Positions 2,639 through 21,480 of a stretch of DNA of 32,000 nucleotides are shown piece after piece. Origin of the DNA: Promethearchaeum syntrophicum (lineage in GTDB: Archaea > Asgardarchaeota > Lokiarchaeia > Sigyniarchaeales > Promethearchaeaceae). The notes under the pieces were generated by a model, which ran no database searches, had not been told where the DNA came from, and was given only the letters and a program-made list of their open reading frames with translations. The number at the start of each line of letters is the position of its first letter. The stretch's first letter is position 1. Location: assembly GCF_008000775.2 (NCBI RefSeq), contig NZ_CP042905.2:30001-62000 (forward strand), read 5' to 3'. The position numbers and the translations under genes are program-made.

Positions 2639-2709
2639 AGATTATTCTTTATCATGGATTATAAAAAATTTGTTAAACCTCATAAGGATAAAATTAAATA
2701 AAAAAATAA

Positions 2710-3492
2710 TTACATTTTCCTCTTTATTTCTTGAGCTATAAATGTAGCAACATCATCAGCATATTTTCCTGAACCAAAACCAGCATCATAACCTAATTCT
2801 TTTGCTAAATCATTAGTAATTCTTGGACCACCCACAATTAATAGAATTTTATCTCGAATTCCTTCAGCTTCTAACATTTCAACCAGTTCTGTTAAATTAT
2901 GAATATGTACTTGTTTTTGAGTGACTGTTTGAGAAACTAATAGTGCATCAGCTTTTAATTCCTTAGCTTTTGCTATAAAATCCTCATTTAACACTTGAGC
3001 ACCCAAATTATATGCCTCAATCATTTCATAACGTTCTAACCCATAATGGCCCATATATCCTTTAGGATTCATTATAGCGTCTATTCCAACAGTATGAGCA
3101 TCAGTCCCAGTTGTTGCTCCCAGAACAATTATCTTTCTTTTAATATTTTTTTTAATGAACTCATCGGTTTCTTTTATGCTCATAACTTTTCCTTCAATAA
3201 CTGCAACATTGATACTATTATAGTCTATTTCTAATGTAGATCTTCCATATACTACGAAAAATGTGAAGTTTTGATCTAAAGAAGCATGATATACAACCGA
3301 AGGCTCGGAAAATCCCATTTTTTCAACATATTGTCGCGCTACTTCAACAGCTTTATCACCATCTTGAATGGGTAATGTAAAACTTAATTGAATTTGGCCA
3401 TCGTTCATAGTGTCGCCATATGGCTTGATTTTTGATAAATCAAGGGTTTTATCAAAATTTTTTTTCCTTGAAGAATATAATCCCCCGCCCAT
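2710..3492 (-). CDS. kamE: Beta-lysine (D-lysine) 5,6-aminomutase beta subunit, B12-binding
   Basis: 260 aa. Carries the cobalamin DxHxxG motif 'GTDAHTVGIDA' (about 3084-3107) in a Rossmann-like C-terminal domain. A strong SD 'GGAGGAG' lies upstream. The start sits 1 nt after the kamD stop. Confidence 0.9.
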   Translation of the reverse strand: MGGGLYSSRKKNFDKTLDLSKIKPYGDTMNDGQIQLSFTLPIQDGDKAVEVARQYVEKMGFSEPSVVYHASLDQNFTFFVVYGRSTLEIDYNSINVAVIEGKVMSIKETDEFIKKNIKRKIIVLGATTGTDAHTVGIDAIMNPKGYMGHYGLERYEMIEAYNLGAQVLNEDFIAKAKELKADALLVSQTVTQKQVHIHNLTELVEMLEAEGIRDKILLIVGGPRITNDLAKELGYDAGFGSGKYADDVATFIAQEIKRKM

Positions 3493-3493
3493 T

Positions 3494-5077: not shown

Positions 5078-5086
5078 ATTTCTCAA

Positions 5087-6547
5087 CTAATGATAATATT
5101 TTTTAGCATGATTTAAAACATCTTTATTTAATCCAAGTAAATTAGCAATATTAAGTGCATCTTTTGGAACTTTGTTATTATAAGGGACTTGTTCTAATCG
5201 ATAATCTATAAAATCTTGAATTACTTCAACAGAATTTTTTTGGGAAGTGAAAATTTTAGATTTTAATTTTTCAAAATTAACATTTTTCAAGCCAACAACT
5301 TGATAATGAGTAGTATTCTTGGATGGGATTCCATCATAGTGAGTAGCCATGACGGTTATCACTTTTAATTTTTTTAAATAATCAGAAATAGCTTTTACCA
5401 AAATTTTACCTTCTTTTGGATTTGTACCTCGTGCAAATTCATCCAAAAAAATAAATCCCTCATTTTTTTTAATTGATTTAAAAATTTCATCAATTTTTAA
5501 GATTTCTGCGCCAAATGAACTCAGTCCTTTCGATACATCTTGTAAATCGTCCGAAATGCCATGAATGAATTGAACAATTGGAATTCGGGCTTTTTTAGCA
5601 AACACATAAAACCCTTGTTGGGCGAGTAATACATTTAAAGCAATTGTGTTTAGTGAAACCGTTTTTCCTCCCATATTAGCTCCTGTAATAATCGTTACTC
5701 CTGATTTTAGAAGAACGCTAATGGGAGTAAAAGACTTGTTATTTCTCAATAATATGTCTTGGATAAAAGGATTATTCATATTTTCTAAATTAATTTCTAA
5801 AGATTTGATGATTTCAGGTTTAGTTCCATGATATTTTATAGCTAAATTTGCTTTTGCAAGAAGAAAATCAAAATATCCAATTGAGATAACATTATCTTCA
5901 AGAATAAAAATATTTTTTCTTAATTTCTCAGATAATTCCTTTCTAACACGGAATTCCTCTGCCTTTTCTTCAATAACAACGGAATCTCGTTCCTTTTTTA
6001 GTAATTCTTTAACTATTTCATCTACTTCTTTTGCATAATTTTCTTCAATTATCCTTTTCTTTTCCCGAATATAAGCAAGCTCTTTTGAATAAGATTCACA
6101 AATATGAAAGGTGGACATTCTTTGATTTTTAGGATCCAAGAAGTCTAACAGAGGTTTAGGTGATCTAAGATAGATTTTATCAACTTGAAAATCAATTTTC
6201 TTATACAACTCAATTAATTCTTCAGTTATAAGACAAAAATTCTTTATTTCAAACAATTCCACTTCATCGAGAATTTTTTGGTTCTGGATTTGTATTATGG
6301 TTCTACTAATATCTTTATATCTATCTAAACAAAATTCTATATCATGAATCAAATTACTTTGATGTTTAATTAGCTCTATTAATTTTTCCAAATCATTTAA
6401 TTCTTTAATTAATAAATCGCTGTTTTCAATTTTATAGGATTTAATCTTGTTTTTTTCATTCATTCCATAAAATGTGTGAATTTGCATTGCATTCATGAGA
6501 AAATTATAACCAATTGCTTCTCTTTGAGTATCATCCAAATAATCCAT
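5087..6547 (-). CDS. MutS-domain-V family ATPase without a mismatch-binding domain; putative lysine 5,6-aminomutase reactivase ATPase (KamC-like)
   Basis: Walker A 'GANMGGKTVSLNT' (about 5660-5690). Walker B/signature 'FIFLDEFARGTNPKEG'. 'VMATHYDG', cf. the MutS 'ATHY' motif. The N-terminal ~260 aa are helical and Lys/Glu-rich, with no MutS domain I. The track start is a TTG at 6580. The ATG at 6547 is preceded by 'AGAGGGAA'. Confidence 0.8.
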   Translation of the reverse strand: MDYLDDTQREAIGYNFLMNAMQIHTFYGMNEKNKIKSYKIENSDLLIKELNDLEKLIELIKHQSNLIHDIEFCLDRYKDISRTIIQIQNQKILDEVELFEIKNFCLITEELIELYKKIDFQVDKIYLRSPKPLLDFLDPKNQRMSTFHICESYSKELAYIREKKRIIEENYAKEVDEIVKELLKKERDSVVIEEKAEEFRVRKELSEKLRKNIFILEDNVISIGYFDFLLAKANLAIKYHGTKPEIIKSLEINLENMNNPFIQDILLRNNKSFTPISVLLKSGVTIITGANMGGKTVSLNTIALNVLLAQQGFYVFAKKARIPIVQFIHGISDDLQDVSKGLSSFGAEILKIDEIFKSIKKNEGFIFLDEFARGTNPKEGKILVKAISDYLKKLKVITVMATHYDGIPSKNTTHYQVVGLKNVNFEKLKSKIFTSQKNSVEVIQDFIDYRLEQVPYNNKVPKDALNIANLLGLNKDVLNHAKKYYH

Positions 6548-6566
6548 TATTGTTTCCCTCTTTTTT

Positions 6567-7604
6567 TTAACTATCTTCAAGTAAATTGAAAACCGATATT
6601 TGAATATTCTGTTTTAGTAACTTTAGAAATTTGTCTTTACTAAAACCATCTCCTATCGGTGATTTTGGGTTTATAGTTACCCCGACAATTTTAATTGGAT
6701 ATATAACCTTTAAAATTCCTCCACTTTTTTGAAATCTACTTAAAACTTCTCTTGAAAGAAAAAGTTTAGTAGAATCTTCCACCAATAAAACCATTCTGTT
6801 ATAATTTTTCACATAATTCATAAATTCTTCAATAAAATTATCGCTAACAATACCCTTAACAACTATAATTTGATAATCATTAAGTAACTCCTTCTTAACA
6901 TTCTTTAGAGCTTCTCTAGCATTAAAATTGTTAATGATTTTCGTTTCATGATTAGGAGAAATAAACCCAATTGTTCCATTTTGAATAATTTTCTTTGATA
7001 AATTAATGATCTGTGAATTTTTTTCACCTTCTAGAGAAAGTAAATTAACTAAATGAGACGTATGGTGCACAACTCTATCAATATCAGGTGAGAAAGCTGC
7101 TCCAGTTGCTAGAATCGTTGCATCTGTCACGATTGGTGATGCATAAGATTTTCTATTTACGGCACCATCTATAATTACGAAATCGCAATTAAAACTGAAT
7201 AAAATATTTTTTATTTCTAATAGTTCTGAGTTTTTAGAAGGTCCAGCCAACTCAACGAAACCATCAGATAATGCCCTAATGATTAAAATTTCCCCTAGTG
7301 GTGTTTTAAAATCAGTTGCAACAAGAATTTCCTTAGTTATATCAGTATTAGAAATACATTGTTTTGCTGTTGCAATTATGGTCCCTTTTTCTACGTATAT
7401 TCGTGGTTTTGGAGTGGAAAAAATTGCGTCTTTGCTTTCCCCATCACGACCTATTGAAGTTAAGCCGAGATTATATTTGTTTTTTGCAATATTTATCATA
7501 TAATTAAGAGTTGTGGTTTTCCCTACATTTTTTGCTGTTCCAATTATTGAAATTGATTTAAACTTGTTAAAAATATCCAAAAAAAAGGCTAATTTTTCTA
7601 GCAT
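6567..7604 (-). CDS. P-loop NTPase (SIMIBI/CbiA-DTBS-like Walker A) of unknown function; candidate second reactivase/chaperone subunit (KamB-like)
   Basis: N-terminal Walker A 'SIIGTAKNVGKTTTLNYM' (about 7516-7542). Embedded between kamA and the MutS-like gene. The start is ambiguous: GTG at 7616, 5 nt after the kamA stop, or ATG at 7604. Confidence 0.6.
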   Translation of the reverse strand: MLEKLAFFLDIFNKFKSISIIGTAKNVGKTTTLNYMINIAKNKYNLGLTSIGRDGESKDAIFSTPKPRIYVEKGTIIATAKQCISNTDITKEILVATDFKTPLGEILIIRALSDGFVELAGPSKNSELLEIKNILFSFNCDFVIIDGAVNRKSYASPIVTDATILATGAAFSPDIDRVVHHTSHLVNLLSLEGEKNSQIINLSKKIIQNGTIGFISPNHETKIINNFNAREALKNVKKELLNDYQIIVVKGIVSDNFIEEFMNYVKNYNRMVLLVEDSTKLFLSREVLSRFQKSGGILKVIYPIKIVGVTINPKSPIGDGFSKDKFLKLLKQNIQISVFNLLEDS

Positions 7605-7621
7605 ACAACTTACCACACAAA

Positions 7622-8872
7622 TTAATTACAACTTGACTTTTTTCTATTATTTCTTTCTAATCCTTCGGGTTCTAAAGAAATTCTCTGTCCATTTAACAAA
7701 CCTGCTACTCCAATTAAGTTAGGATCTTCATCGCTTACATTAGGGCACCCAGGAGTATAGAATTTAGGCTCTTCGTAAGTAGTAATAACACCTTCATAAT
7801 TGCGTAAAACTACACGATTATTCCCCTGTGAGATTACATAATTAGGCATTACCGGAATTTTCCCTCCTCCTCCAGGTGCATCTACAACGAAAGTTGGAAC
7901 ACAAAAACCAGAAGTATGACCTCTTAAGCCTTCAATAATATCGATACCTTGGGCAATAGTTGTTCTAAAATGAGATAATCCAATAGATAAATCGCATTGA
8001 TAGATATAATAAGGTCTAACCCTCATTTTCACTAATTCGTGAACTAATTTCTTCATCACAGGGATACAATCATTAATCCCTCTTAAAAGGACAGATTGAT
8101 TTCCCAAAGGAATACCAGCGTCTGCAAGCATTGCACATGCTTTCTTTGAATCATCAGTAATTTCATTAGCATGATTAAAATGAGTATTCAACCAGATTGG
8201 ATGATATTTTTTTAACATAGAACATAATTCAGGGGTAATTCTTTGAGGCATGACACAAGGCGTACGAGTTCCAATTCGTATTATTTCTACATGGGGAATT
8301 TTACGTAAATTTGAAATAATATATTCTAGTCGTTTATCTGAAAGCAATAATGGATCTCCACCCGATAACAAAACATCCCTTACAGATGGAGTATTTGCAA
8401 TATATTCAATTGCATTATCAACTTGTTCTTTGGATGGTGCTTTATCCACGTGACCTGCAAAACGACGACGAGTGCAATGGCGACAGTACATGGAACAGAC
8501 ATGAGTAATTAAAAATAGTACCCGATCTGGATATCTATGGGTAATTCCAGGAACGGGGGAATCTGTATCTTCGTGTAAAGGATCTTGAAGATCTGCTGAT
8601 ACCTCATGAGTTTCTTTTATTGAAGGTACGGATTGTCTCTTAATAGGGTCAATAGGATCGTTGGGATCAATTAATGTGAGATAATATGGAGTTATCGCCA
8701 TTCGGAATACTTTGGTTGTATCAATTACGTTCAATTCTTCTTCTCTAGTTATAGGAAGATATTTTTTTAGCTGTTCGACATCACCAATTCGATTTTTGAC
8801 TTGCCAATGCCAATCATTCCAATCTTCATCGGATACATCTGGATATAATTCTTTTCTTCTATTTACACGCAT
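7622..8872 (-). CDS. kamA: L-lysine 2,3-aminomutase (radical SAM, PLP)
   Basis: 416 aa. Radical SAM cluster motif '[12 protein letters not shown]' (about 8462-8497). The N-terminus '[22 protein letters not shown]' and the 'GGGGK' region are typical of KamA. Full length includes the C-terminal domain, unlike the shorter EpmB. Confidence 0.93.
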
Positions 8873-8881
8873 AATTATTAC

Positions 8882-9919
8882 CTAAACATACTTTTCTTCG
8901 AAAAGTTTCATAAGTTTTGGGCTTTCTCTTAATACATCTAAAGTCATTTTGGCATGATTTTTAGTATATCCATTACCAATTATCATTGAAACATCTTTAC
9001 CTACACCTTCAGCCCCTAAAGCTGCTTTGGTAAAGCTTGTAGCCATGGAAAAGAAATATACAATACCATCATCACGCACTGGAAGAATACTTGACATTTC
9101 AGTATCAGATATATTCACACAATTAATTGAAATATCCACTTCTTTCCCCTCATTAGCTTCGAGTGTTTTTTCATAGACTTCAACTGGATTTCTTGCATCA
9201 GCTACAACAATGGAACCACAAAAACCAATATTTCGAAGATATTCTGCACGTACTTCATTACGGGCTAAACCTAATACTTTACCGTTAGTTCCCACGATTT
9301 TTTTAGCCACATATGAACACATTACTCCAGATTTCCCAGTTGCGCCTAATATTAACACGTTATCCCCCGGTTTAACAAGTTTCATTGTTTGAGCAGGGGC
9401 ACCTGCAACGTCTAAAGCTGCTAAAGCAACTGCATCAGTCATATCTTCAGGAATTTTTGCATAGATCCCACTTTCAAAGAGAATTGCTTGAGCTTTTACT
9501 ATTACTTTATCAATATTCAATTTAATATCGAATATTTCATGAATTTTCAAAGGAGTTAAAGATAGTGAGACTAACGTAGCAATTCTATCTCCAACAGCTA
9601 GATCGATTTTTTCTTTTAATGCGTCACCTATTTTTGCAATTTTACCCATTAGCATTCCACCAGATCCAGTTACCGGATTTTGCATTTTACCCCTTTCTTC
9701 GACAATTTGCATAATCTTTTTTTTAATTTTTTCTGGATCTCCGTGAGCTTCGCTTTTCAGCTGAGTAAAACTCGCAGAATCAATATTAAGTGCATCTACG
9801 TCAATTAGAATTTCATTATCGAAAATTTCCATATCATTGGAAATTTGTTGTGCTGCTTGCGGCATTGATCCTAATGGATTAATTACGCGATGAGTTCCGA
9901 AACGATTACCTTTTTTCAT
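8882..9919 (-). CDS. kdd: 3,5-diaminohexanoate dehydrogenase
   Basis: About 345 aa. Rossmann segment 'VLILGATGKSG'. N-terminus 'MKKGNRFGTHRVINPLG'. First gene of the operon with kamA/kamDE. The track start is a TTG at 9931. The ATG at 9919 has 'GGTG' 7 nt upstream. Confidence 0.85.
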   Translation of the reverse strand: MKKGNRFGTHRVINPLGSMPQAAQQISNDMEIFDNEILIDVDALNIDSASFTQLKSEAHGDPEKIKKKIMQIVEERGKMQNPVTGSGGMLMGKIAKIGDALKEKIDLAVGDRIATLVSLSLTPLKIHEIFDIKLNIDKVIVKAQAILFESGIYAKIPEDMTDAVALAALDVAGAPAQTMKLVKPGDNVLILGATGKSGVMCSYVAKKIVGTNGKVLGLARNEVRAEYLRNIGFCGSIVVADARNPVEVYEKTLEANEGKEVDISINCVNISDTEMSSILPVRDDGIVYFFSMATSFTKAALGAEGVGKDVSMIIGNGYTKNHAKMTLDVLRESPKLMKLFEEKYV

Positions 9920-9972
9920 TAAAAACACCAATTTTAAATTAATTAATTATCCGAACTAATAATGTTTTTCGT

Positions 9973-9997: not shown

Positions 9998-10051
9998 ATT
10001 AGAAAACATGGATTAAATGGTTGAAGGAATATCAAAAAAAAAAGGAATAAA

Positions 10052-10375
10052 TTAGGGTAAAAATTTTTCAAGATATGTGTAATTAGGGGTTAATTTTCCT
10101 TGGTAAGCAATGATCGCGTTTTTAATTTCGGAAGATAAATTTAATTCATCAAAATTCCCTTTAAAATCTGCTTTGGCAATAGGTAAAATATATTTTTTCA
10201 AAGTTGAACTAAAACTAATTGAAGATTCTTTAGAAAATTCACATGGTAAATTATCAATTGCTATGATTGGTATCCCCCTTTTACGAATCCTAAAGGGGCA
10301 CTATCTGTAAAAATGTATTAATCTTCAACCTTTAAAATCCACAACTTTTTCATAAGCAATAAGAGATGTCATTGC
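10052..10375 (-). pseudogene. Decayed partial duplicate of the lysine-ketoglutarate reductase gene (3' end plus an internal piece)
   Basis: 10037-10313 aligns with 17371-17648 at roughly 85-90% nt identity. 10309-10375 aligns with 18303-18367. The intervening ~650 bp is deleted at an A-run. The minus-strand frame reads '...IPIIAIDNLPCEFSKESSISFSSTLKKYILPIAKADFKGNFDELNLSSEIKNAIIAYQGKLTPNYTYLEKFLP*'. There is no start codon, and there are upstream in-frame stops. Confidence 0.85.
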
Positions 10376-10648: not shown

Positions 10649-10658
10649 AAAAAAAAAA
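10649..10658 (-). terminator. Oligo-T (T10) termination signal 5 nt after the giant-gene stop
   Basis: An A10 run on the plus strand sits immediately downstream (minus sense) of the TAA at 10663-10665. Oligo-T is the usual archaeal terminator. Confidence 0.55.
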
Positions 10659-10662
10659 GGTT

Positions 10663-13600
10663 TTAACAATTTCTTTGCCGTTTAATTAATAAAATCATTA
10701 AACCTAAAGTAAATGTTGAAAATAATCCCAGGAATATTATCGAAAAACCCGGAATTCCTGAGCTTGGAAAATCATCAGGATCATTAGGATCTGTACCTGC
10801 TACAATCTCTACTCCATCTGTAAACCCATCATCATCTGTGTCTGCATTATTAGGATCTGTGCTGTGTGTGTTAATTTCTACTTCATCAGATAAATCATCA
10901 TCATCACTATCAGTATCGTTCGGATCTGTGCTGTATGTGTTAATTTCTTCTCCATCGGATAATTCATCATCATCGCTATCTGAATCATTCGGATCTGTGC
11001 TGTATGTGTTAATCTCTTCTCCATCGGATAATCCATCATCATCGCTATCTGCATCGATCGGATCTGTGTTGTTTGTAATTAGTTCTTCTTGATCTGATAA
11101 TCCATCATCATCCGTGTCTACATCATTCGGATCTGTTCCATATGTGATTACCTCTTCTTGATCTGATAACCCATCATCATCACTATCTATATCATTAGGA
11201 TCTGTGTTGTATGTGTTAATTTCTTCTCCGTCTAATAACCCATCTTCATCCGTATCTTCAAGGTGAGGTTCTGTACAATAGGTGATTATCTCTTCATAAT
11301 CTGATAACCCATCATCATCACTATCTATATCATTAGGATCTGTGTAATAAACACTTTCTTCAAGATTTGTTAATCCATCTCCATCATCATCAGTATCTGC
11401 ATCGGAAGGATTGTTCGGATCTAATCCATAATAAACTTCATATCCATCAGACATTCCATCATCATCACTATCTTCATCGTTTGGATCTGTATTATACGTT
11501 AAAATCTCTTCTCCATCAAATAACCCGTCATCATCACTATCTAATTCATTAGGATCTGTGAAATATGTGTTAATTTCTTCTCCATCGGATAATCCATCAT
11601 CATCGGTATCCGTATCATTCGGATCTGTGAAATGTGTGTTAATTTCTTCTCCATCGGATAATCCATCATCATCGGTATCTGTATCATTTGGATTTGTAAA
11701 ATGTGTGTTAATTTCTTCTCCATCGGATAATCCATCATCATCGGTATCTGTATCATTCGGATCTGTAAAATATGTGTTAATTTCTTCTTGATCGCCTAAC
11801 CCATCATCATCACTATCTGCATCATTAGGATCTGTGCCATACGTGTTAATTTCATCTCCATCGGAAAGCCAATCATCATCACTGTCTGAGTCTGTTGGAT
11901 CTGTTTGATAAGAATATTCTTCAAGATTTGTTAAACCATCGCTATCATCATCAGTACCTGCATCAGAAGCACTATTCGGATCTAAACTGTATGTTGTTTC
12001 CCATCCATCAGGCATCCCATCATCATCACAATCTGCATCGTTTGGATCTGTGTTATATGTATTAATTTCTTCTCCATCGGAAAGCCCATCATCATCCGAA
12101 TCTGTATCATTAGGATCTGTGTTATACGTATTAATTTCTTCTCCATCGGACAGCCCATCATCATCCGAATCTGTATCATTAGGATCTGTGCTATACGTGG
12201 TAACTTCTTCTCCATCAGATAATCCATCATCATCCGAATCTGTATCATTAGGATCTGTGTTATACGTGGTAATTTCTTCTCCATCAGATAATCCATCATC
12301 ATCCGAATCTGTATCATTAGGATCTGTTTGATTGATGTATTCTTCGAGATTAGTTAATCCATCTCCATCCAAATCTCCACCTGCATCGGAAATATTGTTC
12401 GGATTTAAACCATTCATAATTTCCCATCCATCAGACATTCCGTCATCATCCGTATCTGTATCATTTGGACCAGTGTTATAAGTGATGATTTCTTCTCCAT
12501 CGGATAATCCATCTCCATCTGAATCTGCATCATTAGGATCTGTGCTATAAGTGAAAATTTCTTCTCCATCAGATAATCCATCATCATCCGAATCAACATC
12601 ATTAGGATCTGTGCTATATGTGTTAATTTCTTCTCCATCGGATAATCCATCATCATCCGTATCACTATCAAAGGGATGTGTGTTGTATATATATTCATTG
12701 AGATTTGTTAAGTCGTCCCCATCCTCATCATAACTTGCAGTAGCATTATTACTAAAGAAGTAAAATATTTCCCATCCATCAGGCATCCCATCATCATCCG
12801 AATCTGCATCATTCGGATCTGTGCCCCACATGAATAATTCTTCTTGATCTGATAATTCATCATCATCCGAATCTGGATCGTTAGGATCTGTACTATATGT
12901 ATTAATCTCTTGTCCATCGGTTAACCCATCATCATCAGAATCTGTATCATTCGGATCTGTGTTATTCGTGATAATTTCTTCTCCATCGGATAACCCATCA
13001 TCATCACTGTCTGGGTCTGTCGGATCTGTATGAAGGTTATATTCTTCGAGATTTGTCAATCCGTCGGTATCAGAATCTATGCCTGCATCAGAAGCACTAT
13101 TTGGATCTAAACCGTATACTGTTTCCCATCCATCAAGCATCCCATCATCATCTGTGTCTGTATCATTAGGATCTGTGCTGTGGGTGTTAATCTCTTCTCC
13201 ATCGGTTAACCCATCATCATCAGTGTCTGCATCATTAGGATCTGTGAAATAGGTATTAATTTCTTGTCCATCTGATAATCCATCATCATCTGTATCTGTA
13301 TTGTTAGGATCTGTTCCATACATGATTATTTCTTCTTGATCTGATAATCCATCTCCATCGCTATCTGCATCGTTTGGATCTGTTCCATACGTGATAACTT
13401 CTTCTTGATCTGATAATCCATCATCATCCGAATCTGCATCATTAGGATCTGTGCTATACGTGTTAATTTCTAATCCATCAGATAATCCATCATCATCCGA
13501 ATCTGAATCTGTGGGATCTGTGCTGTATAAGAGTATTTCTAATCCATCTAATAGTCCATCATCATCAGTATCTGTATCGTTCGGATCTGTGTTATGTGTG

Positions 13601-16600
13601 TTAATTTCATCTCCATCTGATAAAGCGTCATCATCACTATCGTTATCGTTTGGATCTGTTTGATAATTAAACTCTTCAAGATTTGTTAATCCATCGCTAT
13701 CAGAATCTATACCGGCATCAGAAGCACTATTTGGATTAAAACCATACATAATTTCCCATCCATCAGACATTCCATCACCATCACTATCTGAGTCGTTAGG
13801 ATCTGTACTATACGTGATAACTTCCTCTTGGTCGGTTAATCCATCATCATCACAATCTGAGTCGTTCGGATCTGTGCTATACGTGATAACTTCCTCTTGG
13901 TCTGATAATCCATCATCATCCGAATCTGTGTCGTTTGGATCTGTGCTAAATGTGTTAACTTCTTGTCCATCAGTTAATCCATCATCATCCGAATCTGTGT
14001 CGTTTGGATCTGTGCTATATGTATTAATTTCTTGTCCATCAGATAATCCATCATCATCCGAATCTGTGTCGTTCGGATCTGTGCTATATGTGTTAATTTC
14101 TTGTCCATCAGATAATCCATCATCATCACTATCTGGGTCTGTTGGATCTGTACTGTATGTGATTACTTCTTCTTGGTCTGATAATCCGTCATCATCCGAA
14201 TCTGTATCATTGGGATCTGTTCCGTACGTATTAATTTCTTCTCCGTCTAATAACCCATCTTCATCCGTATCTTCAAGATGAGGTTCTGTACCATATGTTA
14301 TTATTTCTTCATAATCGGATAACCCATCATCATCGCTATCTACATCATAAGGATCTGTGTAATGAACACTTTCTTCGAGATTTGTTAATCCATCTCCATC
14401 CGAATCTACATCAGCATCAGAAGGATTGTTAGGATCTAACCCATAATAAATTTCATATCCGTCAGACATCCCATCATCATCACTATCTGAGTCTAATGGA
14501 TCTGTGCTATGGGTTAAAATTTCTTCCCCATCAAACAAACCATCTTCGTCCGTATCTAAAAGGTTCGGATCTGTACCATAGGTTAAAATTTCTTCTCCAT
14601 CGGATAACCCATCATCGTCCGTATCTACATCGCTAGGATCGGTGCTGTGAGTGCTAATTTCTTCTCCGTCGGATAACCCATCATCATCGGTATCGGCATC
14701 GTTCGGATCTGTAGCATGCGTGTTAATTTCTTCTCCATCTGATAATCCATCATCATCGCTATCTGCATCATTCGGATCTGTGCTATATATGGAAACTTCG
14801 TCCCAGTCATCTAATCCATCATCATCGCTATCTATATCGTTCGGATCTGTTCCATATGTGTGTATTTCTTCTCCATCGGTTAATCCATCATCATCCGTAT
14901 CACTATCATAGGGATCGGTGTTGTATGTATATTCTTCAAGATTTGTTAATCCATCGACCTCTTGATCCAAACCCGCATCAGAAGGATTATTTGGATTAAA
15001 ACTGTATAAAATTTCCCATCCATCAGGCATACCATCGTCATCACTATCTGTATCGTTTGGATCTGTGCTGTGTGTGTTAACTTCGTCTCCATCGGATAAT
15101 CCATCATCATCACTATCTATATCGTTCGGATCTGTGCTATACGTGTTGATTTCTTCTCCGTCGGATAACCCATCATCATCACTATCTGAGTCTGACGGAT
15201 CTGTGCTGTATAAGATTATTTCTAATCCATCCAATAACCCATCATCATCACTATCTGAGTCTGTCGGATCTGTGTTATGTGTATTAACTTCGTCACCATC
15301 GGATAATCCATCATCATCACTATCTGAGTCTGTGGGATCAGTTTGATAGTTAAATTCTTCGAGATTTGTCAATCCATCTCCATCCAAATCTCCAACCGCA
15401 TCGGAAGGATTGTTCGGATCTAAACCATACGTAATTTCCCATCCATCTAACATTCCATCATCATCTGTATCTGCATCGTTAGGATCTGTGTCATATGTGA
15501 TTAATTCTTCTTGATCATACAATCCATCATCATCTGTATCTGCATCATTAGGATTTGTTTGATAAATAAATTCTTCAAGATTTGTTAATCCATCACTATC
15601 AGAATCTAAACTTGCATCAGAAGGATTATTTGGATTCAAACCGAATCCTATTTCCCATCCGTCATGTATCCCATCATCATCCGTATCGCTTTTATTTTCA
15701 TTTAACCTAAGTGAAATCTCAAGAATATCTGGCATACTGTCACCATCACTATCCATCGCATTGGCATGATGGAGTGCTGATCCCCCCCAGCATGGCCAAG
15801 GTCCGGGTATCGCCCACGGATCACCATTTCCAATTAAGCAGTATATTTTACCATCATCGGAGCCAAACAGGACTTCCATATTCCCATCCCCGTCCACATC
15901 ACCGAGCGCGGGACTGGAACTAATCGTATTTCCGGTTGTAAAATTCCATTCTTCTCCTCCAGTTGTCCCGTCAATACAGTACATTTTGTGATCAAGGGAA
16001 CCAAATAAGATTTCTATATCCCCATCCCCGTCCACATCACCGATTGTGGGGCTACTAGAATAAACACGATCTCCAGCTGTAAACGACCATTCTTGTAATC
16101 CTGTTGTCCCGTCAAGGCAGTACATTTTGTGATCATAGGAACCAAATAAGATTTCTATATCCCCATCCCCGTCCACATCACCGAGTGCAGGGCCAGAATA
16201 AACAGTACTTCCAGCTAAAAAATTCCATTCTTCTACTCCAGTGGTTCCGTCCAGACAGTAAATATTGCGATAGCAAATAAATACGATTTCTATATCCCCG
16301 TCTCTGTCCACATCACCGAGGGCGATGGTTGAAGGGCTATTTCCGAGTGAAAAAGACCATTCTGACAATCCCGTGGTTCCGTCTACACAAAAAATATAGT
16401 GTCTAGAGCAACTTACAAGAACTTCCATGTCCCCGTCCCCGTCCACATCACCGATGGCAGGAATGGAATAAAAACTAGCTAAATAAGAATCAACCGTCCA
16501 TTTTTCTTCTCCCGTGGTTCCGTCCAGACAGTAAATTTTGTCATGACCTCCCAGAACTTCCATATTCCCGTCTCCATCTACATCACCAAGTGCAAGACCG

Positions 16601-17055
16601 GAATTAACAACATCTCCGGTTGTAAAATTCCATTCTTCTCCTCCAGTTGTACCATCAAGACAGTAGATTTTGCGATCATTGGAACCAATCAGAACTTCCA
16701 AGTTTCCGTCACCGTCCACATCACCGATTGTGGGGCTAGAATAAACAACATCTCCGGTTGTAAACGACCATTTTTCTTCTCCCGTGTCCCCGTCCAGACA
16801 ATAGACTTTGTGATCTTGGGAACCTACTACAACTTCCATATTTCCATCCCCATCTGTATCACCTATTGCAGGATTAGAACTAACACTGTCTCCGGTTGTA
16901 AATGTCCATGCTAGAGACCCTGTTGTTCCCGTAAAGCCTGTGGAATATTCCGCATCTTCGGAAATCATTAACGGAAAAATAAGAAATGTCAGTAAAATCG
17001 CTATACCTATTATGATATTTTTCCTCATTACTCGATTGACCGATATTCCGGCCAT
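10663..17055 (-). CDS. Giant secreted/surface-anchored Ca-binding repeat protein: signal peptide + 8-bladed FG-GAP/PQQ-like beta-propeller + ~70 TSP type-3-like repeats + PGF-CTERM anchor
   Basis: The ORF is open over 10663-17187, but the track start is a TTG. The first ATG is at 17055 ('MAGISVNRVMRKNIIIGIAILLTFLIFPLMI', a signal-like sequence). There are eight blades of the form 'W.F.TGD.V.SSP.IGDVDGDG..EV..GS.D.K.YCLDG.TG'. A long array of 'D.D.DDDGLSDGEEINTYSTDPN' units follows. The C-terminus is 'SSGIPGFSIIFLGLFSTFTLGLMILLIKRQRNC'. Confidence 0.9.
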   Translation of the reverse strand: MAGISVNRVMRKNIIIGIAILLTFLIFPLMISEDAEYSTGFTGTTGSLAWTFTTGDSVSSNPAIGDTDGDGNMEVVVGSQDHKVYCLDGDTGEEKWSFTTGDVVYSSPTIGDVDGDGNLEVLIGSNDRKIYCLDGTTGGEEWNFTTGDVVNSGLALGDVDGDGNMEVLGGHDKIYCLDGTTGEEKWTVDSYLASFYSIPAIGDVDGDGDMEVLVSCSRHYIFCVDGTTGLSEWSFSLGNSPSTIALGDVDRDGDIEIVFICYRNIYCLDGTTGVEEWNFLAGSTVYSGPALGDVDGDGDIEILFGSYDHKMYCLDGTTGLQEWSFTAGDRVYSSSPTIGDVDGDGDIEILFGSLDHKMYCIDGTTGGEEWNFTTGNTISSSPALGDVDGDGNMEVLFGSDDGKIYCLIGNGDPWAIPGPWPCWGGSALHHANAMDSDGDSMPDILEISLRLNENKSDTDDDGIHDGWEIGFGLNPNNPSDASLDSDSDGLTNLEEFIYQTNPNDADTDDDGLYDQEELITYDTDPNDADTDDDGMLDGWEITYGLDPNNPSDAVGDLDGDGLTNLEEFNYQTDPTDSDSDDDGLSDGDEVNTHNTDPTDSDSDDDGLLDGLEIILYSTDPSDSDSDDDGLSDGEEINTYSTDPNDIDSDDDGLSDGDEVNTHSTDPNDTDSDDDGMPDGWEILYSFNPNNPSDAGLDQEVDGLTNLEEYTYNTDPYDSDTDDDGLTDGEEIHTYGTDPNDIDSDDDGLDDWDEVSIYSTDPNDADSDDDGLSDGEEINTHATDPNDADTDDDGLSDGEEISTHSTDPSDVDTDDDGLSDGEEILTYGTDPNLLDTDEDGLFDGEEILTHSTDPLDSDSDDDGMSDGYEIYYGLDPNNPSDADVDSDGDGLTNLEESVHYTDPYDVDSDDDGLSDYEEIITYGTEPHLEDTDEDGLLDGEEINTYGTDPNDTDSDDDGLSDQEEVITYSTDPTDPDSDDDGLSDGQEINTYSTDPNDTDSDDDGLSDGQEINTYSTDPNDTDSDDDGLTDGQEVNTFSTDPNDTDSDDDGLSDQEEVITYSTDPNDSDCDDDGLTDQEEVITYSTDPNDSDSDGDGMSDGWEIMYGFNPNSASDAGIDSDSDGLTNLEEFNYQTDPNDNDSDDDALSDGDEINTHNTDPNDTDTDDDGLLDGLEILLYSTDPTDSDSDDDGLSDGLEINTYSTDPNDADSDDDGLSDQEEVITYGTDPNDADSDGDGLSDQEEIIMYGTDPNNTDTDDDGLSDGQEINTYFTDPNDADTDDDGLTDGEEINTHSTDPNDTDTDDDGMLDGWETVYGLDPNSASDAGIDSDTDGLTNLEEYNLHTDPTDPDSDDDGLSDGEEIITNNTDPNDTDSDDDGLTDGQEINTYSTDPNDPDSDDDELSDQEELFMWGTDPNDADSDDDGMPDGWEIFYFFSNNATASYDEDGDDLTNLNEYIYNTHPFDSDTDDDGLSDGEEINTYSTDPNDVDSDDDGLSDGEEIFTYSTDPNDADSDGDGLSDGEEIITYNTGPNDTDTDDDGMSDGWEIMNGLNPNNISDAGGDLDGDGLTNLEEYINQTDPNDTDSDDDGLSDGEEITTYNTDPNDTDSDDDGLSDGEEVTTYSTDPNDTDSDDDGLSDGEEINTYNTDPNDTDSDDDGLSDGEEINTYNTDPNDADCDDDGMPDGWETTYSLDPNSASDAGTDDDSDGLTNLEEYSYQTDPTDSDSDDDWLSDGDEINTYGTDPNDADSDDDGLGDQEEINTYFTDPNDTDTDDDGLSDGEEINTHFTNPNDTDTDDDGLSDGEEINTHFTDPNDTDTDDDGLSDGEEINTYFTDPNELDSDDDGLFDGEEILTYNTDPNDEDSDDDGMSDGYEVYYGLDPNNPSDADTDDDGDGLTNLEESVYYTDPNDIDSDDDGLSDYEEIITYCTEPHLEDTDEDGLLDGEEINTYNTDPNDIDSDDDGLSDQEEVITYGTDPNDVDTDDDGLSDQEELITNNTDPIDADSDDDGLSDGEEINTYSTDPNDSDSDDDELSDGEEINTYSTDPNDTDSDDDDLSDEVEINTHSTDPNNADTDDDGFTDGVEIVAGTDPNDPDDFPSSGIPGFSIIFLGLFSTFTLGLMILLIKRQRNC
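10790..15765 (-). repeat. Tandem coding repeats, 69-bp (23-codon) period, ~70 units (thrombospondin type-3-like DxDxDGxxDxxE calcium-binding units)
   Basis: The periodicity is visible in both DNA and protein. It is punctuated by 10 double-length modules 'DDDGM.DGWEI.YGL(D/N)PN(N/S).SDA..D.D.DGLTNLEE'. Confidence 0.9.
15790..16930 (-). repeat. Eight ~140-bp coding repeats (propeller blades)
   Basis: The plus-strand string 'ccccgtccacatcaccga' (encoding GDVDGDG) recurs about every 140 bp. Confidence 0.8.
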
Positions 17056-17386
17056 CTTATTTCGCCCTAAAGAAATTGAACTTAACTTGTTATGTTTAAA
17101 TTTTCTGTATTTTGTCAATTTTGATTCCTCATTTATGTTTGAAATTATTAATTTGTTAACCCAATTATCAAATTGTCTATAAATCAAATTATAAATCTAT
17201 CTTTAGATTAACTTGTATAAAAAATTTATTATAGAGGCAGGTGAGAAAAATTATGATATTTTCTTTTTTATCGGAATCTATTATCCAATTTTGGTTTTAT
17301 CTCCCAATTTTTGTTCAAGTGTTTTTGCATCACTTAAAATAATAATTAGATTCCATGCATAAATGAATAGAAAAAAAGGAATTAAC

Positions 17387-18685
17387 TTATTGCAAATATT
17401 TTTCAAGATATGTGTAATTAGGAGTTAATTTTCCTTGGTAAACAATGATCGCGTCTTTAATTTCGGAGGGTAAATTTAATTTATCAAAATTTCCTTTAAA
17501 ATCTGCATTTGCTATAGGTAAAACATATTCTTTTAAAGTCGAACTAAAACTGATTGAAGATTCTTTAGGTAGTTCACATGGCAAATTATCAATTGCCATG
17601 ATTGGCATTCCGCCTTTGATTAATCCTAAATATGTACTATCTGTAAAAGGATCATATGTAATAATTGGATTATCTGGTTTTGTTGATTCAAGAGACCCTT
17701 CTATAGCACCTTCTATATCTATTGAAATATCACCAATTATTTTTAATCTGCTATTTTCTTTTATCAAGGATTTGAATCCTTCCTTTCTTATCAATCGAGG
17801 ATATTTTGCTGACCAAAAGAGGGCATTGACTAAGATTGTTAAATACGGTAAGTATTCATGGAATTTGCTATGGTATTTATCCAAACCGTTATCATAATAG
17901 TCTTGTAAGTCAAATTTATGATTTGGATCATTAGGTTCCACTAAATGTTCTTCTTTGAAAACAATTTTATAAACATGGTTTTTGGAAAAATTACCTTCTT
18001 CAAAAAAAGATTTTAAATCATTTGGATCAATTTCAATGACTGGTAAGATATCTAAGAAAGATTGAGCTCCTTTAGAAACATTTCCATACCCAGCAAAACC
18101 ACAAAATATTGGAAGATTCAACCCATTTTTCTCTATATCCTTTGAAAGATCTTCAAAATATTTCTTTTGTTCCTCGACATTATTGTACTCAAAAGTATGT
18201 TTTAACTTCAAAAATGGAGTTTGGATCCCTTCGATTTTTAATAATCTTTGCCCATATCCCCATAAAGTTTCATTTATACCAGATAACCCGGCCCAATTCC
18301 CAAAAAATATTAACCTTCGTCCTTTAGAATCCACAACTTTTTCATAATCAATAAGTGTTGCATTTTCTTTTAATATTTTTTTTAGCATAGGCATATTATA
18401 TCGTTGACCTTTGATTACATGGCTGAAAAAGATATACACTTTCTGGGATATTAATTTTGAAGGAATTTCTTTAACTGCAAATATAACATCTGCATTTTCA
18501 AGAGTATTTTCAATAATTGCACCTTCCTCCTCATACTCGTTATCTGAAAAAGCGCGATTGTCAGATGATTGAACAATAAATTGACAAGAATGGTTTTTTA
18601 CTAAATCTCCAACATCTTTTGGAATTATTGGAGCTCTTTTTTCCCATTTATTTTTATCTTCTTTTCTAATGCCAAGGACGTTCAC
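17387..18685 (-). CDS. Saccharopine dehydrogenase (L-lysine-forming) / lysine-ketoglutarate reductase, long AASS-LKR-like form
   Basis: 432 aa. The N-terminus 'LGIRKEDKNKWEKRAPIIPKDV' resembles the LKR domain of AASS ('RRED.N.WERRAPL.P'), an AlaDH/PNT-type fold. The only possible start is the GTG at 18685, with an in-frame stop 9 nt upstream. Confidence 0.82.
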   Translation of the reverse strand: MNVLGIRKEDKNKWEKRAPIIPKDVGDLVKNHSCQFIVQSSDNRAFSDNEYEEEGAIIENTLENADVIFAVKEIPSKLISQKVYIFFSHVIKGQRYNMPMLKKILKENATLIDYEKVVDSKGRRLIFFGNWAGLSGINETLWGYGQRLLKIEGIQTPFLKLKHTFEYNNVEEQKKYFEDLSKDIEKNGLNLPIFCGFAGYGNVSKGAQSFLDILPVIEIDPNDLKSFFEEGNFSKNHVYKIVFKEEHLVEPNDPNHKFDLQDYYDNGLDKYHSKFHEYLPYLTILVNALFWSAKYPRLIRKEGFKSLIKENSRLKIIGDISIDIEGAIEGSLESTKPDNPIITYDPFTDSTYLGLIKGGMPIMAIDNLPCELPKESSISFSSTLKEYVLPIANADFKGNFDKLNLPSEIKDAIIVYQGKLTPNYTYLEKYLQ

Positions 18686-18808: not shown

Positions 18809-20128
18809 ATGAAAAAGGTATTACTATTTGGAGCGGGATTAGTAGCAGGTCCAACTGTTCAATATTTATTAGAACATGGATTTGACGTCACTAATGCAAG
18901 CCGAACTATTTCTAAAGCAGAAAAATTAATTGGAAATCACCCAAATGGTCATTCTATTCAATTTGATATTTCAAAAAATCCTGAAAAATTAGATGATCTA
19001 GTAAAAAAATGTGATATTGCAATTAGTCTTCTGCCTTATACTTTCCATGTTCAAATTGCGAAGAGTTGTATAAAAAATCGAAAACATATGGCTACAACAT
19101 CCTATGTTAGTGATGAGATGAAACTACTGGATGAAGAAGCTAAAAAAGCGGGAATTATCCTTTTAAACGAAATGGGTGTTGATCCCGGAATTGACCATAT
19201 GGCAGCTCAAGAAATAATTGATAAAGTGCATGAAAAGGGCGGAAAAATTGAAAGTTTTCGTTCTTTATGCGGAGGATTACCGGCTCCCGAAGCAAACACT
19301 AATCCTTTTGGATATAAATTATCATGGTCACCCCGTGGTGTTTTATTGGCAGGAAGAAATACAGCCGAATATCTTGAAGATGGAAAAAAAGTTGTTATTC
19401 CAGGTAAAGATTTATTTGACAATTATTTTCCATATATTGTAAATGGATTGGGAGATTTTGAAGCATATCCGAATCGGAATTCTAATCCTTATATTGAAAC
19501 ATATGGAATTCAGGAAACTAATTTCATATTACGAGGAACCTTGAGAAATATTGGATGGTGTTCAACATTAAAGAAAATTGCCGATATGGGTTTGATGGAT
19601 TTAGAAGAGCGCGAAATTGAAGAAGATACGAATTATTCAAATTACATGAAGAAATTCCTAAATTTACCGAATAAGCCAATACGGGAAGCAATTGCTGAAA
19701 AATTCAATATTACTGATAAAAAAATTATTGATCGCTTGGAATGGCTTGGGTTATTAGGAGATGAGAAAATCCCCTTTAAAAAAGGAAGTCCCCTTGACGC
19801 TTTGGACTACCTTTTCAATAAAAAATTACAATATGCACCCGGAGAACGAGATATGCTAATTTTGATCCATGAATTTATCGCAAGTTATTCTGATCATAAG
19901 GAAAAAATAACTGCAACTATGATTGATTATGGTATTCCTAATGGGGCTAGTTCAATGTCTCGTACGGTTGGACTTCCAATAGCTATTGGTGTTCGTATGA
20001 TTCTTGAAGGAGCGATAACTGAAACAGGTGTGCATATTCCAATAAAGAAGGGGATTTATACCCCAGTGTTAAAAGAATTAGCTGAAATGAATATTAAATT
20101 TGTGGAAACAATCGAAAAAATCGAATAA
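18809..20128 (+). CDS. Saccharopine dehydrogenase (L-glutamate-forming) / saccharopine reductase, LYS9/AASS-SDH-like
   Basis: 439 aa. Rossmann 'KVLLFGAGLVAGP'. The strings 'LLPYTFH', 'NEMGVDPGIDHM', 'SLCGGLPAPE..NPFGYKLSWSPRGVLLAGRN' closely track LYS9-type enzymes. Confidence 0.9.
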   Translation: MKKVLLFGAGLVAGPTVQYLLEHGFDVTNASRTISKAEKLIGNHPNGHSIQFDISKNPEKLDDLVKKCDIAISLLPYTFHVQIAKSCIKNRKHMATTSYVSDEMKLLDEEAKKAGIILLNEMGVDPGIDHMAAQEIIDKVHEKGGKIESFRSLCGGLPAPEANTNPFGYKLSWSPRGVLLAGRNTAEYLEDGKKVVIPGKDLFDNYFPYIVNGLGDFEAYPNRNSNPYIETYGIQETNFILRGTLRNIGWCSTLKKIADMGLMDLEEREIEEDTNYSNYMKKFLNLPNKPIREAIAEKFNITDKKIIDRLEWLGLLGDEKIPFKKGSPLDALDYLFNKKLQYAPGERDMLILIHEFIASYSDHKEKITATMIDYGIPNGASSMSRTVGLPIAIGVRMILEGAITETGVHIPIKKGIYTPVLKELAEMNIKFVETIEKIE

Positions 20129-20240: not shown

Positions 20241-20732
20241 ATGGAAAAGTTAAAAATTTTCAATTTTCTGTATGATTTTGAAGAGAATAAGAAAGTGAAC
20301 CTCTCCGAGGCACTCAAATTATTAGAAAAAACTCCTTTTCCAAAAGTTATTAATGAAAAGGAAATTTACGCGATTAACGATGATACATTCATTATGACTA
20401 AAAACTCTGATTCAGAAGACAACGCAGTCGGTTTTATGAAAAAAAATGGAGAAATCATTCAATTCCTTAGACTTTTTGAGGATGAATGGGAAATTGATAT
20501 TCCTATTCAAAATTTACAAACTAAAAGCTGGACCGGAGAAACTTATTTGTTTGATGGGCTTTCAATCTATGATGTGAAAAAAATTGTAAGGGTATTTTTT
20601 AGAGATGCAGATTTAATTAGTTCAATCGTAGAAAATTTTGAAGCAAGAGACAATTATAATGAGGATGATGATAAATTTAAATTAGAAATGGATGTAAAAT
20701 TTAAGAAATGGGTAAATCAAAGATCTAATTAA
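20241..20732 (+). CDS. Hypothetical protein (163 aa, acidic, no recognised domain)
   Basis: Clean ATG ORF in an otherwise non-coding gap, followed by a T12 run at 20747-20758. Confidence 0.55.
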   Translation: MEKLKIFNFLYDFEENKKVNLSEALKLLEKTPFPKVINEKEIYAINDDTFIMTKNSDSEDNAVGFMKKNGEIIQFLRLFEDEWEIDIPIQNLQTKSWTGETYLFDGLSIYDVKKIVRVFFRDADLISSIVENFEARDNYNEDDDKFKLEMDVKFKKWVNQRSN

Positions 20733-20877: not shown

Positions 20878-21480
20878 TTGAAGGTGAACACGATAAGTAT
20901 TGAAAATATATCAGATCCGAATTTTGATCAAGCTAAATATGAAAAAAAATTACAAGACTCACGATCAGCAGTTGTGGGTACATTAACAGGACTTGCAATC
21001 GTAACAATTGTAATGGTTGCTGTTGGGCATGGAGCATGGTGGAGTATCATTCCAATTCTTGCTGTTGGTTATGGATTTATAGATCAAGTAGTCGAGTATC
21101 GATTACGTAAACGATATGCTTCTAAAAAAGAAATTGATGCTATAAAAGCACCAATGGGTGCTTGGTTTGGTTTTATTTTAGTCTCATTTATTATGACTTC
21201 TATTTTTGGAAGTTTCTTTTATTGGATTGCTTTAATTGTAGAGGTTGCAGTATTTTCTGGTGGTGTTTATACAACCATGGATTATGTTAATGCAAAAAAA
21301 CGTAATTTTCAAAAGAGAGGGGAACAAACAGAATCTGCTGATACTGGATCTTATCAAGAACAATTAAGTCCAGAACCTAATATTGTAAAATCTAATGTAC
21401 ATGAACTCTTTTGTGCTACTTGTGGTAATTCAATTTCAAGTAGTTCTGAATATTGTCCATCTTGTGGAGATCACATTTAA
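20878..21480 (+). CDS. Hypothetical 4-TM membrane protein with a C-terminal zinc ribbon
   Basis: Four hydrophobic segments. The C-terminus is 'CATCGNSISSSSEYCPSCGDHI' (CxxC...CxxC). The start is uncertain (TTG 20878 or GTG 20884). A T15 run at 21486-21500 follows. Confidence 0.55.
   Translation: MKVNTISIENISDPNFDQAKYEKKLQDSRSAVVGTLTGLAIVTIVMVAVGHGAWWSIIPILAVGYGFIDQVVEYRLRKRYASKKEIDAIKAPMGAWFGFILVSFIMTSIFGSFFYWIALIVEVAVFSGGVYTTMDYVNAKKRNFQKRGEQTESADTGSYQEQLSPEPNIVKSNVHELFCATCGNSISSSSEYCPSCGDHI

Follow-up and report, generated by a model that had tools for sequence, protein, structure and literature searches.

What kind of protein is encoded by a single 6.4-kb open reading frame (ORF) in the genome of Promethearchaeum syntrophicum, a member of the Promethearchaeota within the Asgard group, and does it tie this archaeon to the adhesion proteins of eukaryotes? 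The ORF lies on the minus strand of a 32,000-nucleotide stretch of DNA (contig NZ_CP042905.2, positions 30,001 to 62,000), referred to here as the window and used for all coordinates below. A first-pass annotation, made from the sequence alone, had described its product as a giant surface protein that combines an integrin-alpha-like FG-GAP propeller with thrombospondin-type-3-like calcium repeats. Our analysis identifies the giant protein as an unusually long and pure case of a widespread class of prokaryotic surface proteins, and not as a relative of integrin or thrombospondin. It is probably anchored in the membrane, where a calcium-stiffened stalk would hold a binding head off the cell.

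The minus-strand frame is open for 2,174 codons when counted from a TTG (10663..17187), and its first ATG, at 17055, gives a protein of 2,130 aa plus stop, recovering exactly the extent given in the first-pass annotation (Table 1). The translation begins with MAGISVNRVMRKNIIIGIAILLTFLIFPLMIS, ends in GIPGFSIIFLGLFSTFTLGLMILLIKRQRNC, contains 24.1% Asp and has a net charge of −645. An ORF of 6.4 kb in DNA of about 33% GC cannot have arisen by chance. The longest exact internal repeat in the DNA of the gene is 59 nt, and the 23-aa units described below share on average 75% of their nucleotides, which makes repeat collapse unlikely. Multi-unit blocks have clearly been duplicated (e.g., aa 855-1003 versus 1860-2008), and the ratio of nonsynonymous to synonymous substitutions (dN/dS) between duplicated 149-aa blocks is 0.19-0.24 at a dS of 0.57-0.84, indicating that the duplications are old and that the copies are under purifying selection. 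Judged by these sequence features, the region is not obviously an assembly artefact, and we propose that the array grew through segmental duplication of multi-unit blocks that would since have been kept under purifying selection.

The GC content of the giant-gene region is raised to 0.38-0.44, which reflects its amino acid composition (Asp and Gly codons). A foreign origin was considered on the basis of GC content and rejected: the GC content at third codon positions (GC3) is 0.22 in the array and 0.35 in the propeller, compared to 0.14-0.31 in the neighboring genes, and thus does not clearly mark the DNA as a recent foreign arrival. The exact protein, looked up with two start variants, had no record in the public gene index. 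Within its extent the gene also holds ORFs of 86-155 aa that read from the other strand or in different frames (11982-12317, 13814-14281, 14651-14911, 15065-15346 and 16543-16914); these are most likely by-products of its repetitive Asp-codon composition and not genes.

Table 1. The giant gene, the parts of its product and its flanks, in window coordinates.
Feature	Position	Strand	Basis
T10 run 5 nt past the stop codon; candidate archaeal oligo-T terminator	10649..10658	-	Read from sequence
Complete coding sequence, giant acidic surface protein, 2,130 aa	10663..17055	-	Intact ORF, Pfam matches, dN/dS
Putative N-terminal signal segment, aa 1-32, MAGISVNRVMRKNIIIGIAILLTFLIFPLMIS	16960..17055	-	Basic n-region and hydrophobic core of ~18-20 residues
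Predicted eight-bladed beta-propeller, aa ~44-408	15832..16926	-	Eight loops, AF2, Foldseek, Pfam
Linker, aa 409-456, GNGDPWAIPGPWPCWGGSALHHANAMDSDGDSMPDILEISLRLNENKS	15688..15831	-	Low AF2 confidence, no repeat motif
Array of 70 TSP3_bac/EF-hand-like calcium-loop repeats, aa 457-2098	10762..15687	-	Tiling, TRF, Pfam, AF2, Foldseek
Putative C-terminal sorting/anchor signal, aa 2101-2130	10666..10755	-	GIPGF motif, hydrophobic helix, KRQR basic tail
AT-rich upstream intergenic region, 331 bp	17056..17386	-	TATA-like elements
Pseudogene relic of AlaDH/PNT-like gene	10037..10373	-	blastn, alignment, ORF fragment 10052-10201

The head of the protein carries eight DxDGDGxxE[IV] loops, one per blade, at aa 66, 112, 158, 203, 248, 293, 340 and 386, with a spacing of 45-47 aa, and the blade strand motif Y/F-C-L/V/I-D/I-G...W is intact in six blades. 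At the DNA level, Tandem Repeats Finder (TRF) detected the same region as a 138-nt period in 7.8 copies (15839-16909). An AlphaFold2 (AF2) model built from a 66-sequence alignment reached a predicted local distance difference test score (pLDDT) of 90.1 and a predicted template modeling score (pTM) of 0.88, and its 32 strands form eight four-stranded blades, in agreement with the eight blades and calcium-type loops originally described. The modeled part of the linker that follows (aa 414-434, model residues 382-402) had a pLDDT <50, and a search of the linker for a repeat motif found none.

In the Pfam scan of the full protein, the head matched Beta-prop_ACSF4 (PF13570; 150.5 bits, cut-off 133) and also PQQ_2 and Beta-prop_CGLA, and FG-GAP models were not listed. 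When the N-terminal 456 aa were scanned as an isolated domain, PF13570 was the best model (160 bits, cut-off 133), joined by PF13517 FG-GAP_3 (127.9 bits, 9 stretches), PF13360 PQQ_2 (78.2 bits, cut-off 27.6) and PF01839 FG-GAP (63.8 bits, cut-off 22.1; 8 stretches). The PQQ-dehydrogenase models of NCBIfam scored far under their cut-offs (TIGR03075, 33.4 versus 480 bits; TIGR03074, 27.2 versus 833 bits). A Foldseek search of the propeller model against the PDB returned BamB (E = 2e-18, TM-score 0.81 normalized to target), YxaL and Tako8 as the best matches; the top 50 also took in BBS2 and PQQ dehydrogenases, including PQQ methanol dehydrogenases, and integrin alpha was not among them. By sequence, the nearest PDB entries were the designer propellers Bagel8 (E = 2e-60), Cake and Scone, together with 3HXJ (3e-28). 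Alignments to Bagel8 and Cake showed a 3+2-residue gap where each blade of the giant protein holds its DxDGDGxxE loop, which these designer propellers lack. Pfam, AF2, Foldseek and the PDB alignments together thus indicate that the head, as modeled, is an eight-bladed BamB/PQQ-like propeller carrying FG-GAP-type loops of the calcium type, and it is this extra loop in each blade that draws the FG-GAP matches.

The predicted fold is shared with BamB, YxaL, the archaeal PQQ-like structure 3HXJ and the designer propellers Cake, Bagel and Tako8, although BamB has only 17-19% sequence identity to the head and the giant protein has no role in a BAM complex. The propeller of integrin alpha has seven blades, not all of which contain a calcium site, in contrast to the eight blades of the giant protein with loops in all. 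What the two have in common is the FG-GAP-type calcium loop and, as predicted for the giant protein, the role of an extracellular binding head. An integrin-like fold was rejected given its absence from the top 50 structural neighbors, and the "integrin-alpha-like" description did not survive: the FG-GAP and FG-GAP_3 matches are there, but in a BamB/PQQ-like propeller of eight blades.

One Cys is kept per propeller blade in the Y/F-C-L/V/I-D/I-G strand (aa 86-406, DNA ~15838-16800), with a second Cys in two blades, and this residue is also part of the family consensus "VYCLxG." In an extracellular domain, one would not expect each blade to keep a single Cys without a partner; this residue may be buried in the core or bind metal.

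The bulk of the protein is repetitive. Residues 461-2098 can be tiled without gaps into 70 units of 22-27 aa: 50 have a length of 23 aa, 10 are longer (27 or 25 aa, "DGMxDGWEIxYGLDPNNPSDA") and 10 are shorter (22 aa, "DGLTNLEE"); in the DNA, TRF recovered a 69-nt period with 64.3 copies (10826-15326, score 1749). A strict loop, D.[DN].[DN]G..[DN]..[ED], with the EF-hand ligand positions 1, 3, 5, 9 and 12 and Gly at position 6, is found in 63 of the 70 units. Asp makes up 28% of the array, whose net charge is −578 and whose 1,638 residues include no Lys or Arg and only three Cys. The approximately 70 calcium-type repeats and the extremely acidic, Asp-rich character noted earlier are therefore confirmed. 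The Pfam family TSP3_bac (PF18884, gathering cut-off 25 bits) matched the full protein with 508.8 bits (E = 7e-157) in 28 stretches and a six-unit fragment with 88.3 bits in 6 stretches, one per unit. The eukaryotic family TSP_3 (PF02412) matched neither the full protein at E <= 0.01 nor a 149-aa array fragment at E <= 10.

A piece of the array (aa 1532-1680) was modeled with AF2 from an alignment of internal and homologous blocks; as with the propeller, the model carries no ions. Confidence was high (pLDDT 95.9, pTM 0.84), with one short helix per unit and two in the 27-aa unit. The only significant PDB matches found by Foldseek were structures of the Staphylococcus Bap B/BSP-domain (7C7R and 7C7U), which superimposed over 43-45 residues with a root mean square deviation (rmsd) of 0.5-0.6 Å and 42-44% identity. 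The thrombospondin structures 1UX6, 2RHP and 1YO8 gave E-values of 0.05-0.1, a probability of 0.02 and an rmsd >10-11 Å, and thrombospondins together with the OmpA TSP3 structure 5WTL were marginal matches overall (E 0.05-0.2, probability 0.01-0.02). Eukaryotic type-3 repeats are disulfide-rich and, as in 1UX6, wrap around a core of calcium. The type-3 repeats of thrombospondin and COMP (TSP_3; 1UX6) share with the array the Asp-rich DxDxDG-type calcium loops and, as predicted for the giant protein, an extracellular setting, but their disulfide Cys pattern is absent from the giant protein and its predicted unit has a short helix. Membership of TSP_3 was rejected on the missing Pfam match and the missing Cys pattern. 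The label "thrombospondin-type-3-like" accordingly holds in the sense of the bacterial TSP3_bac family and fails in the sense of the eukaryotic one.

A PDB sequence search with a piece of the array likewise found only Bap (E = 0.031) and a low-complexity match to curlin repeats. Judging by the DxDxDG motifs in the alignment, and not by residue numbers, the matched stretch of Bap probably corresponds to EF-hand motifs 2 and 3 of that protein. Bap no longer responds to calcium once positions 1, 3 and 12 of the loops in these motifs have been mutated (PMC7785521), and by analogy it is a well-grounded inference that the array units bind calcium. Among solved structures, the B-domain of Staphylococcus aureus Bap comes closest to the repeat unit and has the same DxDxDGxxDxxE loop, yet the two proteins show no similarity beyond this motif pair. 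In Bap, two motifs inside a globular domain serve as a calcium switch for amyloid formation, whereas in the giant protein 70 units make up the bulk of the molecule.

Only two hydrophobic segments were found by Kyte-Doolittle analysis, at aa ~8-32 and ~2104-2126, and the top-scoring 19-mers begin at aa 13-15. The N-terminal segment may be a Sec signal peptide or a signal anchor, as far as hydrophobicity can tell. Among NCBIfam models scanned against the C-terminal 44 aa, Loki-CTERM (NF033507) matched residues 2101-2126 with 20.7 bits (cut-off 19.9), and the Heimdall-CTERM and LPXTG models remained under their cut-offs. PGF-CTERM (TIGR04126, the archaeosortase A target), the label assigned in the first-pass annotation, did not match the same residues at E <= 10; the literal PGF tripeptide is present, but the label was rejected and Loki-CTERM put in its place. 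The order of signal segment, eight blades, approximately 70 repeats and C-terminal anchor is as originally described.

To place the giant protein among its relatives, the full-length sequence was searched against the protein database and yielded 1,823 proteins at E < 1e-10. Among the matches listed, which range from ~1,250 to 3,630 aa, nearly all have TSP3_bac arrays under varied heads, and those of the best matches include S8 and M4 peptidases, transglutaminase, beta-helix, and FG-GAP and PQQ propellers. The hosts of these array proteins are many bacteria, Heimdall-, Thor- and Promethearchaeota, Marine Group II/III archaea (MGII/III) and haloarchaea. A search with the propeller recovered ~1,200 proteins at E < 1e-10, many of them of ~450-700 aa and from WOR-3 bacteria and Asgard lineages. 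Existing annotations give several relatives, including Asgard ones, the name "PQQ-binding-like beta-propeller repeat protein" or "BamB family protein." WOR-3, Bacteroidota, Proteobacteria, MGII/III and haloarchaea are all rich in both module types, and because the modules are so widespread in prokaryotes they do not point to a specific connection between Asgard archaea and eukaryotes; the link to eukaryotic adhesion that they had been taken to imply is not supported. The best full-length match covered 64% of the query at 42% identity, and for the propeller the highest identity was ~40-45% in the protein database and at most 34% on metagenome contigs. With 63 strict loops, compared to a median of 31 and a maximum of 78 among the 120 best matches, and an Asp content of 24%, the giant protein is at the top of the family.

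The closest likeness is to other TSP3_bac giants, such as a Heimdallarchaeota protein with C25 and C11 peptidases, a propeller, a TSP3 array and a C-terminal transmembrane helix (P0005), a Promethearchaeota "BamB family protein" (P0045), the transglutaminase proteins of MGII/III and proteins of the Myxococcus CglD/MtsD type, all of which have a long tandem array after a globular head. The archaeal examples that were checked (P0005, P0045 and P0011) end in a C-terminal transmembrane anchor, as predicted for the giant protein, and a 149-aa block of the giant protein is 50-70% identical to blocks in P0097 and P0005. It scored under the cut-offs of the NCBIfam equivalog models for both CglD (301.8 versus 400 bits) and MtsD (137.6 versus 800 bits), with matches only in the TSP3 regions. 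Compared to these giants, its array of 70 units is unusually long and pure, and its head consists of a single propeller only. At the other extreme, small homologs (P0240, P0221 and P0226) combine the same propeller with 1-2 TSP3 units and a C-terminal transmembrane anchor, which makes the repeats look like a variable-length spacer and supports such a role for the array between membrane anchor and head.

Beyond this family, the giant protein resembles Salmonella SiiE and RTX-type ice-binding/adhesin proteins in its proposed working principle, in which many tandem calcium-binding modules build up a stiff rod with a binding region held out at its far end. SiiE-type adhesins are built of BIg domains of ~90-100 aa, whereas the units of the giant protein are EF-hand-like, 23 aa long and of an unrelated fold. 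SiiE and RTX adhesins use a type I secretion system, and the giant protein has a signal segment and Loki-CTERM instead. SiiE has been described as a calcium-rigidified rod adhesin (PMC7785521), and a preprint on giant genes regards giant proteins with dockerin or bacterial TSP3 modules as likely to function in attachment. Literature searches on Asgard TSP3 proteins, Asgard integrin/FG-GAP, Promethearchaeum surface proteins and Loki-CTERM returned nothing specific beyond this preprint.

We therefore favor, with a probability of about 0.6, a membrane-anchored surface protein whose calcium-stiffened stalk holds a binding head off the cell. The N-terminal signal segment would direct export, and the Loki-CTERM (GIPGF, transmembrane helix and KRQR), for which the family match was found, would retain the protein in the cytoplasmic membrane or have it processed there. 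Each of the 70 EF-hand-like units would bind at least one Ca2+ (or Mg2+), as suggested by their homologs, EF-hands 2 and 3 of Bap, and together the units would fold as a regular rod, in keeping with the shared motif and the AF2 model of about one short helix per unit. Such a rod would be a long, calcium-stiffened and strongly anionic stalk that lifts the propeller off the membrane. The propeller itself would be loaded with Ca2+/Mg2+ at its own eight loops, and from its distal position could bind a ligand, e.g., a partner cell, a matrix polymer or a particle. The long, calcium-rigidified surface stalk presenting a propeller that was envisaged in the first-pass annotation is thus reasonable, with the small homologs implying that the spacer varies in length. 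Several observations weigh against this assignment. The margin above the Loki-CTERM cut-off is just 0.8 bit, and the 32-kb window does not encode a cognate sorting or processing enzyme. BamB-like propellers are generic interaction scaffolds, and no ortholog of the giant protein was found in the protein database, in a neighbor-anchored genome scan or in a metagenome propeller scan.

Stalk-like structures have been reported on vesicle surfaces of P. syntrophicum MK-D1 (Imachi et al., 2020), and these could be a morphological correlate of the predicted stalk, a parallel that is suggestive only. A bolder version of the proposal would make the giant protein a lineage-specific, recently acquired and calcium-dependent tether with a stalk of perhaps 50-100 nm (a guess), whose propeller acts on partner cells or on the cell's own vesicles and protrusions; it would correspond to the MK-D1 "stalk-like structures," and physical contact with the syntrophic partner would depend on porewater Ca2+. 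We regard this as a distinctly speculative extension with a low chance of being correct.

A different weighting of the same features would make the array the functional part and the propeller secondary, the protein serving as a polyanionic sink for divalent cations in the envelope or matrix that would buffer Ca2+/Mg2+, organize extracellular polymeric substances (EPS), seed mineral formation or surround the cell with a hydrated electrostatic barrier. The net charge of the protein, its at least 63 canonical loops, the lack of Lys and Arg over the whole array, and an Asp content and loop count at the top of the family would all suit such a role, as would the description of MK-D1 cells as covered by EPS-like material. 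It is harder to reconcile with a propeller that is well conserved, confidently folded and complete in its eight loops, and that recurs with the same family in many proteins; the membrane-distal position of the propeller suits a presented head, and in homologs the heads borne by the arrays are enzymatic or binding ones, in favor of a spacer role. We consider a cation sink unlikely, though worth keeping in mind. The propeller could also be viewed as the catalytic domain of a PQQ-dependent dehydrogenase displayed on a stalk, given the partial matches to Pfam PQQ and PQQ_2 and to NCBIfam PQQ-dehydrogenase models and the PQQ methanol dehydrogenases among its structural matches. However, all enzyme models stay far under their cut-offs (e.g., 33 versus 480 bits), the domain of ~365 aa has the size of BamB and not the ~560-660 aa of the dehydrogenases, and it is matched best by BamB, YxaL and designer propellers, which are not catalytic, leaving this function with hardly any likelihood.

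Equally improbable, and largely refuted, is the idea that the giant protein is a homolog or precursor of the eukaryotic adhesion machinery of integrin alpha and thrombospondin/COMP, and hence an Asgard "eukaryotic signature" protein. The FG-GAP and FG-GAP_3 matches, the DxDxDG loop motif common to thrombospondin type-3 repeats and the Asgard host invite this interpretation, but it is contradicted by the BamB/PQQ-like fold of eight blades with no integrin among the top 50 structural matches, by the failure of TSP_3 to match at E <= 10 and the poor fit of thrombospondin structures (probability 0.02, rmsd >10 Å), by an array with only three Cys, and by the abundance of both modules across bacteria and archaea. 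One might suspect an assembly artefact, or a gene that is decaying and not expressed, from the highly repetitive nature of the ORF, its absence from the public gene index as an exact protein and its location at a recently rearranged spot next to a pseudogene. This too appears very improbable: the frame of 2,130 codons is unbroken in AT-rich DNA, exact repeats do not exceed 59 nt and the units are ~75% identical in DNA, dN/dS is ~0.2, the array has a GC3 of 0.22 and host-like codon usage, and both targeting signals are intact.

The surroundings of the giant gene bear on how it came to its present position. The AlaDH/PNT-like protein encoded upstream and Kdd, encoded downstream, are 84% and 89% identical, respectively, to proteins on a contig of a metagenome-assembled genome of another Promethearchaeum sp. 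(L001), where, at 2362-4824, the AlaDH/PNT-like gene is followed directly by kdd and the giant gene is absent from the syntenic site. In the window, the two genes are separated by a segment of ~7.4 kb that consists of the 331-bp upstream region, the giant gene, the T10 run, 289 bp of unrelated DNA and the AlaDH/PNT-like relic. The relic is internally deleted, a 64-nt internal piece (codons ~108-128) being fused to the last ~278 nt of an AlaDH/PNT-like gene. It sits between the giant gene and kdd, where the insert ends on its downstream side; it shows blastn identities of 84% and 87% to the functional copy at 17387-18685 and is 82% identical to L001. No integrase or transposase was found in the ~7.4-kb insert. 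The relic and the adjacency of the two neighbors in L001, the one recovered contig on which the sister-species comparison rests, indicate a lineage-specific insertion of the giant gene, accompanied by the duplication of a gene.

The giant gene is probably a transcription unit of its own, as suggested by its own flanks, the T10 run after its stop codon and its absence from the syntenic site in L001. Oligo-T runs serve as transcription terminators in archaea, and the T10 run may act as one here. The 331-bp upstream region, which has no similarity to the rest of the window, would hold a putative promoter, with the TATA-like element TTTAAACA ~40 nt upstream of the ATG and TTTTTATA further upstream. 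A functional tie of the giant gene to the lysine-fermentation genes next to it was considered and rejected, because both neighbors are adjacent in L001 without the giant gene and because it has its own flanks and T-run.

These neighbors form a complete lysine-fermentation operon on the minus strand (2710-9931) with kdd (NF052381), kamA, kamB (NF052386), kamC (NF052383, MutS-like ATPase), kamD and kamE, and a BKACE/kce gene and a thioesterase are found further along (24535-25371). The operon is consistent with the metabolism of an amino-acid-fermenting Asgard archaeon. Beside it lies a divergent pair, the AlaDH/PNT-like gene (17387-18685, minus strand) and a saccharopine-dehydrogenase-like gene (18809-20128, plus strand), which resembles the two halves of the lysine-ketoglutarate reductase/saccharopine dehydrogenase of the saccharopine pathway; relatives of the AlaDH/PNT-like protein, at an identity of ~50%, occur widely across Thermoplasmatota, Aminicenantes and Bacteroidales. 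Of the ORFs at 20241-20732, 20878-21480 and 26082-27173, two (163 aa and 363 aa) matched nothing in Pfam or NCBIfam. The third (200 aa) carries a zinc ribbon at its C-terminus, and L001 has a homologous ORF at the equivalent position (221-820). A 230-aa protein (30509-31201, minus strand) had a weak match to Fuz_longin_1 (FUZ/MON1/HPS1 longin; E = 1.4e-4, 22.5 bits versus a cut-off of 26.1) and none in NCBIfam, and may be a longin protein of the Asgard eukaryotic-signature type. The sole RNA gene in the window is a tRNA-Ser(GCT) (28087-28171, minus strand), detected by ARAGORN and Rfam.

The Asgard archaea of this genus are obligate syntrophs, and their attachment to partners and the organization of their envelope are poorly known. 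The giant protein, probably among the largest made by the organism and predicted to be surface-exposed with ~70 calcium sites, does not strengthen the case that the adhesion modules of integrin or thrombospondin arose in archaea; both are present in their common prokaryotic versions. It is of modest practical value as a well-annotated and extreme example of a TSP3_bac stalk with a head in a cultivable lineage, and the confident AF2 model of its repeats links the array to the experimentally calcium-responsive EF-hands of Bap. With its size, predicted surface exposure and predicted calcium sites, the giant protein is a reasonable candidate for studies of envelope or attachment, and if its reading as a calcium-dependent tether were true, it would offer a directly testable molecular handle on how Asgard archaea attach to their partners.

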